This document shows, one piece after another, positions 15,784-44,565 of a stretch of DNA of 64,000 nucleotides. The number at the start of each line of letters is the position of its first letter. Position 1 is the stretch's first letter. Source of the DNA: a virus; the IMG/VR virus record IMGVR_UViG_3300027816_000057; one strand, 5' to 3'. The notes under the pieces were generated by a model. The model searched no databases and was not told the DNA's origin. It was given only the letters and a program-made list of their open reading frames with translations. The position numbers were made by a program, and so were the translations under genes.

Positions 15784-16158
15784 ATGGCGACAAGAATTGT
15801 TTATCGTGTAGAAAACAAGAAAACTGGTAAAGGTCCGTATACTTGGATGCATAAAGATAGTTCAGAATGTTTTGTAAAACCTAGCGATCATACTAAAACT
15901 ATTTTTGGTACTACGTCACTTAAAAATATTATTTATTGGATCGATGAGCATATGAGGGAAGAAACAACTCTAAAAGGTTGTCATGTTGCTGCCTATCGCG
16001 TAAAACGTGCTAAAATGCTGCTGCAACCTCGATTGAAGTTGCCGCGAAAAGAATATGAAAAAATTTCTCGATATGAATTTCGGGAATGTGTTTTCGATAT
16101 TTCTGCGGCGGAAAAAATCAGCGGAATGTCATTTAAAAAAGCACGACAATTAGCTTAA
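15784..16158 (+). CDS. hypothetical protein
   Basis: GGAG SD; VYRVE..GKGPY motif. Confidence 0.65.
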   Translation: MATRIVYRVENKKTGKGPYTWMHKDSSECFVKPSDHTKTIFGTTSLKNIIYWIDEHMREETTLKGCHVAAYRVKRAKMLLQPRLKLPRKEYEKISRYEFRECVFDISAAEKISGMSFKKARQLA

Positions 16159-21073: not shown

Positions 21074-21146
21074 CGGCTTATAGCTCAGTGGTTAGAGCAA
21101 TCCCCTTATAAGGGATAGGTCGATGGTTCGAGTCCATCTAGGCCGA
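21074..21146 (+). tRNA. tRNA-Ile(TAT)
   Basis: CGGCTTA/TAGGCCG; anticodon arm ATCCC-CTTATAA-GGGAT; own promoter at 21057. Confidence 0.9.
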
Positions 21147-22385: not shown

Positions 22386-22604
22386 ATGGGAAATAATAAA
22401 AATAAAACTCCGCTGTTTCCTCATGTTAAAGTAAGTCTCGTTGGAAAAGAGGGTAATGCTTTTTCTATTCTTGGAGCAGTTAAGAAAGAGATGAAGAAAA
22501 ATCAAGTTCCACAGGAAGATATAGATAATTTCTTTAATGAGGCTATGAGCGGTGATTATGATAATGTTTTGCGTACAGTTATGAAATACGTTAATGTCAA
22601 CTAG
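22386..22604 (+). CDS. conserved hypothetical phage protein
   Basis: LVGKEGNAFSILG...EAMSGDYD motif. Confidence 0.75.
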   Translation: MGNNKNKTPLFPHVKVSLVGKEGNAFSILGAVKKEMKKNQVPQEDIDNFFNEAMSGDYDNVLRTVMKYVNVN

Positions 22605-23521: not shown

Positions 23522-23782
23522 ATGAAAATTGAACATACAGATTTTGGTAACAGAAAATATTTAACGGCTTTGACGATTAGAGAAAAACGACAGAAATTTT
23601 ATAAATATTATAATAAAAAGAGTGTAAACGATCCATCAGCAAAAGAGATGGGGTTCTGTGTAGTTGATAGTAGTGGAAATATTTTAGATGTAAATTCTGA
23701 TTTTGAAAATATTAGTATTGATATTTGGAAAGAGTATGTTTTTACAGAATTTCACGGAAAACTTATCATCCAAACGGATTAA
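23522..23782 (+). CDS. small beta-rich paralog family member
   Basis: MKIEH...FTEFHGKLII; AAGGA SD. Confidence 0.65.
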   Translation: MKIEHTDFGNRKYLTALTIREKRQKFYKYYNKKSVNDPSAKEMGFCVVDSSGNILDVNSDFENISIDIWKEYVFTEFHGKLIIQTD

Positions 23783-23817
23783 AAAATAGAACGAGACGGA
23801 TATAATAGATTGTAAAC

Positions 23818-23904
23818 CCCCGTGTGGTGAAATTGGCAAACACTGCGGACTTAAAATCCGCCGCCGTTAATAGCGGCTTGTCGGTTCGACTCCGACCACG
23901 GGGA
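23818..23904 (+). tRNA. tRNA-Leu(TAA)
   Basis: CCCCGTG/CACGGGG; anticodon loop CTTAAAA; long variable arm. Confidence 0.95.
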
Positions 23905-23921
23905 CTTTGAAAGGAAAATAT

Positions 23922-24167
23922 ATGGATCGTCTAGCTAATATTGGATGTGTCGGTATTTTGTTTGTCTATGGTGTTTATTTTACAGTCGTAGGAGCTTTGA
24001 TTAGTCTTCTAGCTTTTTGGACGCAGAATAATCTTGCTTTTTGGGTAAGTCATTCTAAGGGTACTCCAACAGACGTTCCTTATTGGCTAGCTTGGGTAGC
24101 TTCAATTCCAGTACCGTTTACTTTTATTGCTAATATTGTTTCACAAATTGCTCGTTTGTTTGTATAG
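23922..24167 (+). CDS. small membrane protein
   Basis: Hydrophobic; AAAGGA SD. Confidence 0.65.
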   Translation: MDRLANIGCVGILFVYGVYFTVVGALISLLAFWTQNNLAFWVSHSKGTPTDVPYWLAWVASIPVPFTFIANIVSQIARLFV

Positions 24168-24263
24168 TATGAAAGGTTATAACAAAGCTACGGCGGCACG
24201 CCCAAACGCCGTAAGTGAGACTAGAGAGATCGGGCTTAAGGGTTCTCGTTTTCATACTATACA
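24161..24263 (+). ncRNA. candidate structured RNA closed by a perfect 14-bp stem
   Basis: TGTATAGTATGAAA/TTTCATACTATACA enclosing hairpins. Confidence 0.55.
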
Positions 24264-24271
24264 TTAAATAT

Positions 24272-24393
24272 AACACAGATGCCTAATAATAGGCGGTTAA
24301 AACTATCTTGCGGTTTTCTCCCGTAAGCTAAGGCACCTTTCCCTGTTGATAGTTACCCGAACGGAAATCTTGGTGAAAAACCAAGCTGTGTTT
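24272..24393 (+). ncRNA. tRNA-mimic RNA (acceptor stem plus T-arm geometry)
   Basis: AACACAG/CTGTGTT 7 bp; adjacent CTTGG-TGAAAAA-CCAAG arm; followed by TT-ATG. Confidence 0.55.
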
Positions 24394-24395
24394 TT

Positions 24396-24638
24396 ATGAA
24401 TATTGAAATTAAAGAAAAACAACTTCTACCATATCGTCCTTTTAACGATATTTCTTATCGCTATAATCAATGGTTTTACTATTCAAAGTGCGGTAAAGAA
24501 GATCACGGTCTTTGTTATGTTACAGAAAAAGGTGTTTTTTCTGTTGATGTTCTAGGAATTAGTTTGATTAACGATAGAACATGGCAAGATTTTAAATTTC
24601 GTTCTTTTAATGGTGAGATTACTATTAAGGTGAATTAA
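24396..24638 (+). CDS. small beta-rich paralog family member
   Basis: MNIEI...FRSFNGEITI. Confidence 0.7.
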   Translation: MNIEIKEKQLLPYRPFNDISYRYNQWFYYSKCGKEDHGLCYVTEKGVFSVDVLGISLINDRTWQDFKFRSFNGEITIKVN

Positions 24639-24640
24639 AT

Positions 24641-25084
24641 ATGCTGCCTGTAGATAAAATCTTAGATTATCATCTCAAAGAGCATAGAGAAGAAATGTCT
24701 CTGCTGGCGGCGTTACTTGGTAACGATAAAGAAGATTTAGCTGGTATGTGTGCTATTTCTACATTGGAATTAGGTAAAATTTTTGAATCATATGGATATA
24801 ATCCGTTATATTGCACTACGGGTAATCATTGTTTTTTAATTGTAGATGATTTTATAGTAGATGCTACGGCGTCTCAATTTGGTTTTGACGATTGCTTATT
24901 TGACCTTCCGGATGAAGAATTTGGTTATGAATTTTTTCATGCAGATTCTAAATATTTTGAATCGCAAGAAAAGTTTATTCACGCTTTATATCAGTGGCCT
25001 ACAACTCAGCATCCTATTAATTATAAAGAGTGTTTGAAATCGAAAAGTTCCCGAATAAATCAGGATTCTATGATCGGCGTATAG
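24641..25084 (+). CDS. papain/transglutaminase-like fold protein
   Basis: GMCAI, HCFL and DATASQF give a possible C-H-D triad. Confidence 0.5.
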   Translation: MLPVDKILDYHLKEHREEMSLLAALLGNDKEDLAGMCAISTLELGKIFESYGYNPLYCTTGNHCFLIVDDFIVDATASQFGFDDCLFDLPDEEFGYEFFHADSKYFESQEKFIHALYQWPTTQHPINYKECLKSKSSRINQDSMIGV

Positions 25085-30915: not shown

Positions 30916-30988
30916 TGCGGGAGGCTAGGCCGGGTGGTCTGGTGAGTCTCATAAACTTGCAACTTGGGTTCGAGTCCCAATCCCGCTA
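30916..30988 (+). tRNA. tRNA-Met/Ile2(CAT)
   Basis: GCGGGA/TCCCGC; anticodon loop CTCATAA; T arm TTGGG-TTCGAGT-CCCAA; atypical D arm. Confidence 0.8.
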
Positions 30989-32316: not shown

Positions 32317-32588
32317 ACCGATAGTCTAGATAGAAATATCTAGACTATTTTTATGCAATATCCAACTCTAGATGAAGTAAACAATGCTTCTCATGAACAA
32401 ATTTGTAGATTGTATAGATTTTTACCAACCCCAGCGTTTTATTCGCAAGAATCTTTCGATATACTAACTAGAGTTTGCGAAAGGCTTAAAGAATTTGGTG
32501 GTTTTACTCCCGAAATTTCTAAGAAAATTGGATTTCAATTATGAATTGATAATTGCCTTAAAAAATTACAATCTTAGATATAATATTT

Positions 32589-42668: not shown

Positions 42669-42757
42669 GCGGGATGTTCCATGAATCCGACTGTAAATCG
42701 GATGAGTGTTATATATTCATGGTGGATGCTCGGAAAGTTCAATTCTTTCATCCCGCA
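42669..42757 (+). tRNA. non-canonical tRNA-Tyr(GTA)-like RNA lacking a D arm
   Basis: GCGGGAT/ATCCCGC; TCCGA-CTGTAAA-TCGGA; T arm GAAAG-TTCAATT-CTTTC; about 30-nt variable region. Confidence 0.7.
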
Positions 42758-43339: not shown

Positions 43340-43380
43340 TTCACTAAATGTGGCATCTTTAGCGAGGTGCCATTATTTTT

Positions 43381-44565
43381 ATGCCTGATATTGCCAATCA
43401 ATCTATCCGTCCAAAAAGTCTTGATGAAATTATCGGTCTTGAAGAAATTAAAACTTCGATTAATTACGATCTTAAAGGTGCTAAGATTAGAGGATGTGAT
43501 TATCCTCACTATATTTTGTCTGCGGCACCGGGGCAAGGTAAAACTACCTTAGCTGATATTATTGCATCACTCACCGAGGGTAATATTCATAAGGTGTTAG
43601 GAAACGATCTTAAATCATCAGATGATATTTACACCATTCTACAACAGGCAAAAGACGGAGATGTAGTCTTTGTAGAAGAAGCACATGGAATTAATAAGAA
43701 AGTTGATACCGTACTTTTACCTATCCTTGAAGAAGGTGAAGTAATAGGCGGTGCTAATTGGGGCTTGCTTAAAGCACCAAAAGTTGTTTTTATCTTTGCT
43801 ACTACTAATGCTGGTAGACTTTCTCAGGCACTTAGAAACAGATGTAAAGTATTGCAGCTACGATTCTATTCAGTAGATGAATTATGTTTAATTTTGAAGC
43901 GAGCTGCGACTATTCTAGGCTATCAGTTTGAAAATGCCGAAGCTCTTCGTTTACTTGCTCAGTCCAGCCGTGGTACACCTAGAACTGCGGTAGAACAAAG
44001 ACTAGAAGCGGTATTAAATGTTATGGCGGTAGATAGTCTGCCGTTTAGTATTGATACAGTAAAAAAGTCTCTAGAATTAAACGGTGTTAACGAGTGGGGT
44101 CTAGAACGTAACGATCTCAATTATTGTGAAACTCTATACAGAATCCAAACTGATAACGGTAATCGTCCTGTATCTCTAAAAATTATCAGTCAAACACTTA
44201 ATCTATCCGATGATGTAATCGAAATTATTGAACAGTATCTAAATCAAATTGGTGTTATTGTTATTACGTCGCGAGGACGAATACTTTCTGCTTTAGGATA
44301 CAATATTATCGGAAAAGAAAGATTACCGGAAAACCTAGAGATTAAAGGGGCGATTGATTTTATACCTAACATCAGTCCTAACATTAAAGCCCTTGCTGAG
44401 TCCTCTGACTTTGAAACAAGATTAAAGGGAGGCGAGTTTAAAACCATACGAGATATTTGTGTCGCATATGGTTTACGTTATGGTATCGATAATGATATTG
44501 TTAAAATTGAATTAGCTAAATACGGTTATAAATCATCTCAGCGTAGCGGCATCAGAAGTAATTAA
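43381..44565 (+). CDS. ruvB: RuvB-like Holliday junction AAA+ ATPase with C-terminal extension
   Basis: RPKSLDEIIG, PGQGKTTLA, ATT..G.LS.ALRNR, SRGTPR and TSRGR. Confidence 0.85.
   Translation: MPDIANQSIRPKSLDEIIGLEEIKTSINYDLKGAKIRGCDYPHYILSAAPGQGKTTLADIIASLTEGNIHKVLGNDLKSSDDIYTILQQAKDGDVVFVEEAHGINKKVDTVLLPILEEGEVIGGANWGLLKAPKVVFIFATTNAGRLSQALRNRCKVLQLRFYSVDELCLILKRAATILGYQFENAEALRLLAQSSRGTPRTAVEQRLEAVLNVMAVDSLPFSIDTVKKSLELNGVNEWGLERNDLNYCETLYRIQTDNGNRPVSLKIISQTLNLSDDVIEIIEQYLNQIGVIVITSRGRILSALGYNIIGKERLPENLEIKGAIDFIPNISPNIKALAESSDFETRLKGGEFKTIRDICVAYGLRYGIDNDIVKIELAKYGYKSSQRSGIRSN

Follow-up and report, generated by a model that had tools for sequence, protein, structure and literature searches.

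In the IMG/VR virus record IMGVR_UViG_3300027816_000057, of which a stretch of 64,000 nucleotides was analysed here (the window, to which all positions refer unless a contig is named), the open reading frame (ORF) designated ORF80 starts without a Shine–Dalgarno sequence (SD), directly behind a structured RNA of 122 nt that we call element B. This raises the question of what element B is, and how the gene behind it comes to be translated. An initial annotation, made from the sequence of the window, had proposed that element B mimics the acceptor stem and T arm of a tRNA, and that it recruits RNase P and RNase Z to release both a small RNA and a leaderless mRNA. Comparison with a related phage supports element B as a conserved acceptor/T-arm mimic, and the spacing between its terminal helix and the next start codon is that found behind the real tRNA genes of the phage. 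It is probable, with the reservations set out below, that element B signals a cleavage by which a small RNA and a leaderless message are set free, and that it is handled like the phage's own tRNAs.

Structure and conservation of element B

The two stems on which the initial annotation was built, AACACAG/CTGTGTT and CTTGG-TGAAAAA-CCAAG, were confirmed by checking the sequence and with RNAfold, as was the order of the unpaired T at 24393, the TT at 24394–24395 and the ATG at 24396. The interior stems named by the initial annotation were also found at their stated places. All these stems are contained in the minimum-energy fold (z = -2.74), and the G+C content of the element is 0.43 against a background of 0.32. 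The element is accepted as real because of the covariation seen in comparison with a relative, and not because of its stem geometry, which is near chance level when taken alone.

The relative was located by a walk along short, overlapping contigs, from the gene for a DUF932 protein to the HD gene and on to an 80-aa gene, with look-ups of exact proteins. Its DUF932 protein and HD hydrolase are 84% and 59% identical, respectively, to those of the window. A covariance model built from the window's element B alone gave a 119-nt match in this phage (contig L016, positions 642–760; 64.4 bits, E ~4e-14), and this sequence was found in four identical copies, in L016 and in three further samples. The position is syntenic. 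In both phages, element B lies downstream of tRNA-Leu(taa), with one gene between, and the orthologs of ORF80 and ORF147, at 44% and 78% identity, respectively, lie downstream of it.

Between the two phages, 12 of the 30 base pairs of element B differ on both sides and still pair, and 98.3% of cells in the model alignment are paired. Compensatory pairs occur in four helices, namely four of the seven in the terminal stem, two of five in the D-like hairpin, three of six in the inner hairpin and three of five in the T-like stem. In controls in which the partner was slid by 1–3 columns, 0–1 double-changed pairs were seen. RNAalifold applied to a plain MAFFT alignment, which is not fitted to the structure, returned the same four helices and the same 12 compensatory pairs. 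The initial annotation had named a lack of covariation among homologs as grounds for giving up the acceptor/T-arm mimic; the covariation found here instead supports a conserved mimic, and it extends to the two interior stems GCCTA/TAGGC and TTGCGG/CCGTAA.

A third interior stem, AACTATC/GATAGTT, is not supported, as its 5' strand is invariant and the relative has a U-U mismatch. This stem (element positions 30–36/77–83) competes with a small hairpin (66–70/77–81) that shows one compensatory change, and the base behind the U-U mismatch covaries with the sole variable base of the conserved block ACCTTNCCCTGTTG. This single covariation event suggests a small alternative hairpin in the core of element B. 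The interior had also been described as not a cloverleaf. This is right in part, as the four supported helices stand in cloverleaf order in both phages (terminal stem, D-like hairpin, hairpin with a 7-nt loop, T-like arm). The D-like hairpin has 4–5 bp and an NUAA loop across both phages, and the inner hairpin 5–6 bp and a 7-nt loop. Two connectors are greatly expanded, to 13 nt and 42 nt, compared with the 1 nt and 4–21 nt of a tRNA. Midway along the ~42-nt connector is a near-invariant block of 21 nt, whose two variable positions are mutually complementary in each phage (U/A in one, A/U in the other). Altogether, the conserved, non-covarying core comprises ~35 nt.

No paralogs of element B were found in the 64-kb window or in the relative's loci that were examined. 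Close relatives were not found among phage GenBank records, either with the DNA of positions 23700–24700, which matched the tRNA-Leu only, or with the ORF147, clamp-loader and DUF932 proteins. None was found in IMG/VR via ORF80, ORF81, ORF147, ORF199, the HD hydrolase or an exact DNA word. A search of 5.8 billion proteins with ORF80 returned only its self-match, and metagenome and genome scans with the HD alignment did not pick up the relative. Scans with the core motif of element B, checked with covariance models and ARAGORN, gave chance matches only and no third lineage. A partial core-motif match in contig L025 was rejected; it lies in sequence that looks protein-coding by eye. The distant homologs of ORF147 belong to other phages, which are without element B.

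Relationship to tRNAs and other RNA families

Both copies of element B have the measures of a tRNA at their closed end, namely a 7-bp stem, a 2-nt connector, an unpaired discriminator and a stacked T arm of 5 bp with a 7-nt loop, and seven compensatory pairs fall in this part. In the T-like arm, the motif GG-U-GA-R-A-NN-CC is common to the two phages. Seven of nine key positions (52, 53, 54, 57, 58, 61 and 62 in tRNA numbering) agree with the tRNA consensus, and 55 and 56 deviate.

The loop of the inner hairpin is UUUUCUC in the window and UUGCACC in the relative, with U32, U33 and C38 kept. Element B cannot, on these sequences, be a decoding tRNA, because the 'anticodon' differs between the phages (UUC in the window, GCA in the relative) and position 37 is a pyrimidine. 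ARAGORN found nothing at element B with default settings. With relaxed settings (80% threshold) it forced a tRNA-Gly with a 38-nt intron on exactly 24272–24393, and this call was rejected, as the 'intron' is misplaced. A transfer-messenger RNA (tmRNA) was also rejected; ARAGORN -m found nothing even at the relaxed threshold and the Rfam tmRNA model had no match. A YrlA-like RNA was likewise rejected as the identity of element B. No significant similarity was found between element B and any of the window's tRNAs; its 5' 23 nt resemble tRNA-Glu weakly and without significance. Among 4227 Rfam models, none gave a credible match, whether tRNA, tmRNA, mascRNA, riboswitch or cis-regulatory leader. 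Element B is best described as a new RNA family that has a conserved core and no Rfam entry.

The junction with the downstream gene

Behind six of the ten tRNA genes in the window (Trp, Lys, Glu, Ile, Met and His), the discriminator A is followed by TT and then by the ATG of the next gene, and the same N73-TT-ATG junction is present at the relative's tRNA-Met. None of the ten window tRNAs encodes CCA. The initial annotation had placed element B under the same rule, and this is borne out in both phages. In the relative, element B runs via U-UU-AUG into a 144-aa gene that is absent from the window, and the helix-U-UU-AUG junction is thus kept despite a different downstream gene (ORF80 in the window).

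The gene directly behind element B is without an SD in both phages. In the relative, where one more gene lies between element B and the ORF80 ortholog, the ATG of this ortholog has TAAGGAG at a distance of 5 nt upstream. At tRNA-Met the situation is similar. No SD precedes the gene that follows tRNA-Met in the window, whereas GGAG stands before its ortholog, which in the relative has moved by one gene. In the relative, tRNA-Met is followed by a 64-aa gene that is likewise without an SD, and GAAAGGA is found upstream of the matching window stretch 22425–22598 (a start codon is presumed there). These comparisons support the view that the presence or absence of an SD tracks the position behind element B and not the identity of the gene, which is what the release of a leaderless message predicts.

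The relative's element B has a GATATAAT -10 box ending 6 nt upstream of it, and the corresponding distance from -10 box to tRNA is 4–11 nt at tRNA-Ile, tRNA-Arg and tRNA-Leu. The 5' end of the relative's element B would therefore be essentially the transcription start, and RNase P would hardly be needed there. The window sequence aligned with this box, TATACATT, is likely a decayed promoter. Between element B and ORF80 there is neither a promoter nor an accepted terminator (the one flagged by a scan, and rejected, is discussed below). From its surroundings, element B can be taken to occupy the slot of a tRNA gene in the expression layout of this lineage.

Several tRNA genes start close to promoters. 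Those at 21074, 21998 and 23818 of the window, at L006:1583 and at L020:2053 start 4–11 nt past a GATATAAT or GATAGAAT -10 box and would therefore head transcripts with leaders of a few nucleotides. The tRNA-Met(cat) (30916–30988; L006:4588–4663) has an initiator-like T/T mismatch at pair 1:72 in both phages, and TT-ATG follows it in both; it was called by ARAGORN and is not in the Rfam list at the gathering score. The mismatch may be relevant to leaderless initiation.

Proposed processing of element B

The cleavage steps, the enzymes and the fates of the products are what we infer, and they would run as follows. Element B would be the gene for a non-decoding, tRNA-shaped RNA that is expressed and processed as the phage's tRNAs are. 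The early genes on either side would share its transcript, which in the window is that of the unit beginning with tRNA-Leu and in the relative starts from the GATATAAT promoter. The stacked 7-bp and 5-bp helices with their T-loop-like cap would present the substrate shape for the tRNA end-processing enzymes of the host. RNase Z cuts precursors that lack CCA right after the discriminator, whatever its identity, and C residues there block it (PMC7479834, PMC1874595). The small RNA would be released by cleavage behind the unpaired U at 24393, for which the simplest candidate is RNase Z, with element B as a substrate without CCA.

The remaining message would begin with UU-AUG and be translated as a leaderless, or near-leaderless, mRNA, which would explain the missing SD of the gene that follows. 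Such a message would be equivalent to the transcripts expected from the many GATATAAT-N5-ATG promoters of this phage. At the other end, a cut by RNase P at 24271/24272 would free element B from the upstream message in the window, where the copy is internal to the transcript; the relative's copy would need none. A second structure immediately upstream, element A, might then shield the new 3' end of the upstream message.

A broader proposal, which is offered tentatively and is less probable than the cut at element B, is that the lineage uses tRNA 3'-end processing generally to make leaderless messages, with element B as a dedicated mark that also carries a core acting in trans on a host or phage factor. 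Candidate targets would include the translation apparatus and a defence directed against tRNAs.

Points against the proposed tRNA-type processing

Several observations weigh against this reading. Positions 55 and 56 of a tRNA contact G18 and G19. In element B these elbow contacts have no match, as the D-like loop (AUAA or GUAA) is without G18 G19 and the T loop (UGAAAAA or UGAGACU) has G55 and A56, not U55 and C56. A canonical elbow, as contacted by the specificity domain of RNase P, is thus not evident. The first terminal pair is A-U or U-A, not G-C. The tRNA covariance model RF00005 gave no match between 24100 and 24460 even at E <= 10. The whole comparison is underlain by two distinct element B sequences, the four copies from the relative being identical.

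The geometry is also not rare. A Watson–Crick 7-bp stem with an abutting hairpin of 5 bp and a 7-nt loop occurs seven times in the window, compared with 2.2 +/- 1.4 in shuffles, and when G-U pairs are allowed the 7-bp/5-bp geometry occurs 199 times in the window. The geometry combined with N-TTATG occurs twice in the window, at tRNA-Lys and at element B, and in none of 40 shuffles. TT before ATG is itself common in this phage, with 50 TTATG starts among ORFs of >= 50 codons, and it is also found behind GATATAAT promoters and behind SDs. Only the exact spacing from helix to ATG is therefore informative.

The 3' cut could be made by RNase E or another nuclease instead. Finally, a pure cleavage signal needs neither a conserved 35-nt core nor a promoter of its own. 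The conserved core, and the placing of the relative's promoter at element B rather than directly at the AUG, suggest that the released RNA has a function of its own, beyond the cut site.

Alternative explanations

The core leads to the first alternative, that element B is not cut at all and acts in cis as a structured leader, such as a riboswitch-like aptamer or a translational operator. The terminal helix would then be a P1 stem gating the AUG 3 nt downstream, and the formation of P1 would perhaps be controlled by a protein or a ligand. As is typical of aptamers, covarying helices surround a junction in which unpaired nucleotides are conserved, the relative's element B starts at the promoter and runs straight into the start codon, and the core that a pure cleavage signal leaves unexplained would be accounted for. 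However, no Rfam family matches, although this silence is compatible with an undescribed riboswitch or leader class. Such a leader would have no SD to mask, and it is not clear how a ribosome would initiate at an SD-less AUG placed directly below a 12-bp stack and 121 nt away from the 5' end. With different genes behind element B in the two phages, there would be no common regulated function. The 7-bp/5-bp stack, the T-arm identities and a spacing as at six real tRNAs would have to be coincidence. We regard an uncut leader as unlikely.

Next in order, and also unlikely, is a stable small RNA acting in trans, for example as a tRNA-shaped decoy or protein partner, that is freed by nucleases such as RNase E, III, Y or J and not by RNase P and RNase Z. 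This overlaps largely with the explanation preferred here, and the main difference lies in the enzymes. It draws on the conserved core and on the relative's own promoter for element B. The T4 RNAs rnaC and rnaD provide precedents for stable non-tRNA RNAs in the tRNA region of a phage (PMC9697503), and the RNA ligases and RlaP-type nucleotidyltransferase of the phage containing the window suggest a conflict over tRNAs. The abutting AUG would then reflect genome compaction together with SD-independent initiation on a U-rich leader, and in the window other SD-less genes (32353, 43381) are indeed found behind simple conserved hairpins, with a run of U leading up to the AUG. What this leaves unexplained is the exact 3-nt spacing that element B has in common with the tRNAs and that is kept across the replacement of the gene behind it, as well as the loss or gain of an SD with position.

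Two further explanations are very improbable. A decayed tRNA gene or functionless chance fold would agree with the near-chance level of the geometry by itself, with the tRNA-Gly that relaxed ARAGORN forces and with the weak, non-significant likeness to tRNA-Glu, but a pseudogene would not keep its pairing, and 12 compensatory pairs, the core and the junction have been conserved while the flanking genes were replaced or are 44-78% identical. Equally improbable is an intrinsic terminator or attenuator before ORF80, formed by the T-like hairpin and the tail CTGTGTTTTT, which was flagged by a scan (hairpin 24369–24385 with a T-rich tail): the stem is weak with three G-C pairs, the relative's tail is TAGCGTATTT and not a U tract, the tail forms one strand, the 3' one, of a long-range helix that covaries, and ORF80 behind the hairpin has no promoter of its own.

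Features of the region

The phage that contains the window is large (~163 kb), uncultured and of 32% G+C. Its gene content includes two RNA ligases, an RlaP-type nucleotidyltransferase, a nicotinamide phosphoribosyltransferase and a clamp loader. The window sequence recurs unchanged in ~30 assemblies, and the ~30 contigs with ORF80 are identical across element B. In the region around element B, small plus-strand genes are mixed with ten tRNA genes. The features discussed are listed in Table 1.

Between ORF81 and ORF80 there is a gene-free gap of 228 nt (24168–24395), the second half of which is element B and the first half element A. The G+C content of the gap is 0.42, which is in the top 1.5% of 228-nt stretches from positions 16,001–64,000 of the window. 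A gene for a small peptide inside the gap was considered and rejected, as only short overlapping ORFs are found there. Element A is absent from the relative, and no copy or paralog was found elsewhere. It might protect the 3' end of the upstream message after the cut.

Table 1. Positions of element B, its parts and the neighbouring features in the window
Feature	Position	Strand	Observation
tRNA-Leu(taa) with GATATAAT promoter	23799–23905	+	Heads the transcription unit containing ORF81, element A, element B and ORF80
Element A	24161–24263	+	Closing stem of 14-15 bp covering the TAG stop of ORF81; z = -3.1
TATACATT	24258–24265	+	Aligned with the relative's GATATAAT -10 box; same 6-nt distance from element B; now within the 3' arm of element A
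Element B, tRNA-shaped RNA	24272–24393	+	122 nt including the unpaired 'discriminator' U at 24393; homolog and covariation
Acceptor-like stem, 5' strand, AACACAG	24272–24278	+	Pairs with 24386–24392; 7 bp in both phages, 4/7 pairs compensatory
D-like hairpin, GCCTA-ATAA-TAGGC	24281–24294	+	2 nt past the acceptor strand, as in tRNA; two compensatory pairs, one one-sided change
Conserved block 1, GGTWAAAACTATC	24295–24307	+	12/13 positions the same in the relative
Inner hairpin, anticodon-arm-like, TTGCGG-TTTTCTC-CCGTAA	24308–24326	+	7-nt loop; three compensatory pairs
Conserved block 2, ACCTTNCCCTGTTGNTAGTTA	24335–24355	+	19/21 positions the same in the relative
T-like arm, CTTGG / loop TGAAAAA / CCAAG	24369–24385 (strands 24369–24373 and 24381–24385)	+	3/5 pairs compensatory; no gap to the acceptor 3' strand
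Acceptor-like stem, 3' strand, CTGTGTT	24386–24392	+	Covariation
UU-AUG junction	24394–24398	+	Proposed 5' end of the downstream message; spacing as at six window tRNAs and at the relative's copy (L016:760–765)
ORF80	24396–24638	+	Real gene, without an SD; ortholog L016:1187–1429, 44% identical, aligned from Met1 to the end

Other hairpins abut start codons in this phage. A 12-bp hairpin with a GAAA loop lies right after the DUF932 gene in both phages (window 32321–32355, L005:1225–1260) and is followed by the TTTT-ATG of an SD-less ORF (32353); in the relative, five pairs have changed in a compensatory way, with loop and spacing unaltered. The hairpin could be a punctuation mark of the minihelix type, or a terminator with a U run that enters the start codon. 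A hairpin TGGCA...TGCCA followed by TTATTTTT-ATG precedes the SD-less clamp-loader gene (43381; hairpin at 43345–43383, L005:9610–9647) and is kept in the relative with one compensatory change, G-C to A-T.

Some further observations were made on the neighbouring genes. ORF147 (24641–25081) had no match in Pfam or PHROG, and 171 matches at E <= 0.001 were found among 1.8 billion cluster representatives; at ~24-48% identity, these point to an undescribed family of small phage proteins. On the contig of an unrelated phage with an ORF147 homolog, L028, there is a tRNA with the anticodon CTA, an amber suppressor (L028:2360–2434), near an RNA ligase gene and an arginyl-tRNA-synthetase-like fragment. 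A tRNA-Tyr-like gene with an unusual D region lies just behind tRNA-Asn (42669–42757) and is found in the relative with several base changes (L005:9146–9240). The relative has a 283-aa LAGLIDADG-type gene directly upstream of its DUF932 gene (L006:5195–6046) that has no counterpart in the window and is probably a homing endonuclease insertion.

Comparison with known systems

If cut as proposed, element B would work most like the t-elements of plant mitochondria and like mascRNA, and by sequence or covariance model it belongs with neither. The t-elements are tRNA-like structures that guide RNase P and RNase Z to their cleavage sites at the ends of mRNAs (Forner et al. 2007, PMC1920247). Element B resembles them as a non-decoding acceptor/T-arm mimic inside a polycistronic transcript, and the next message would begin where the element ends; an excised t-element, like the RNA expected here, can persist as a small RNA. 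However, t-elements keep the T-arm motif GGTTCRANYCC (PMC1920247), which element B fails with GGTGARANNCC (GGTGAAAAACC in the window and GGTGAGACTCC in the relative). They also leave long 5' untranslated regions, in contrast to the fixed helix-N-UU-AUG junction without an SD. Unlike the t-elements, element B is found in a phage and has an extra conserved core, and its processing is predicted.

The mascRNA and menRNA at the 3' ends of MALAT1 and MEN-beta are tRNA-like and are excised by RNase P and RNase Z (PMC8457004, PMC11693755). A triple helix just upstream protects the transcript (PMC8457004), and element A is a possible counterpart of it. These RNAs are eukaryotic and nuclear, are ~58 nt long and have no message behind them, and element B has no sequence or family relation to them.

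The T4 species 1 and 2 RNAs (rnaC and rnaD), whose function is still unknown (PMC9697503), are, like element B, non-tRNA RNAs of ~120-140 nt beside phage tRNA genes, and rnaC ends in a T arm and a terminal stem. No homology to element B was found when covariance models R1 and R2 were applied to the T4 locus (L003). The T loop of rnaC is the canonical UUCGAAU, and the T4 RNAs, unlike element B, are without an abutting start codon. No description of a phage system with tRNA-type punctuation and an SD-less AUG abutting the helix was found in the literature.

Implications

In animal mitochondria, the excision of tRNAs defines the ends of the neighbouring messages, several of which are leaderless. 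The present case differs in that the genome is that of a double-stranded DNA phage of a bacterium, which also uses SDs and leaderless promoters, and in that the punctuation is by an RNA that has the shape of a tRNA without being one. If the cut at element B is real, gene expression in this bacteriophage would be organised by tRNA-type punctuation, with a look-alike in addition to real tRNAs, and a small RNA, by its excision, would provide the next gene with a translation start for which no ribosome-binding site is needed. This would join phage-encoded tRNAs, tRNA mimicry and leaderless translation, which are usually treated apart, and would give one reason for the scattering of phage tRNA genes among small early genes. 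Should the broader proposal also be true, the system would be the counterpart, in a bacterial virus, of mitochondrial tRNA punctuation.

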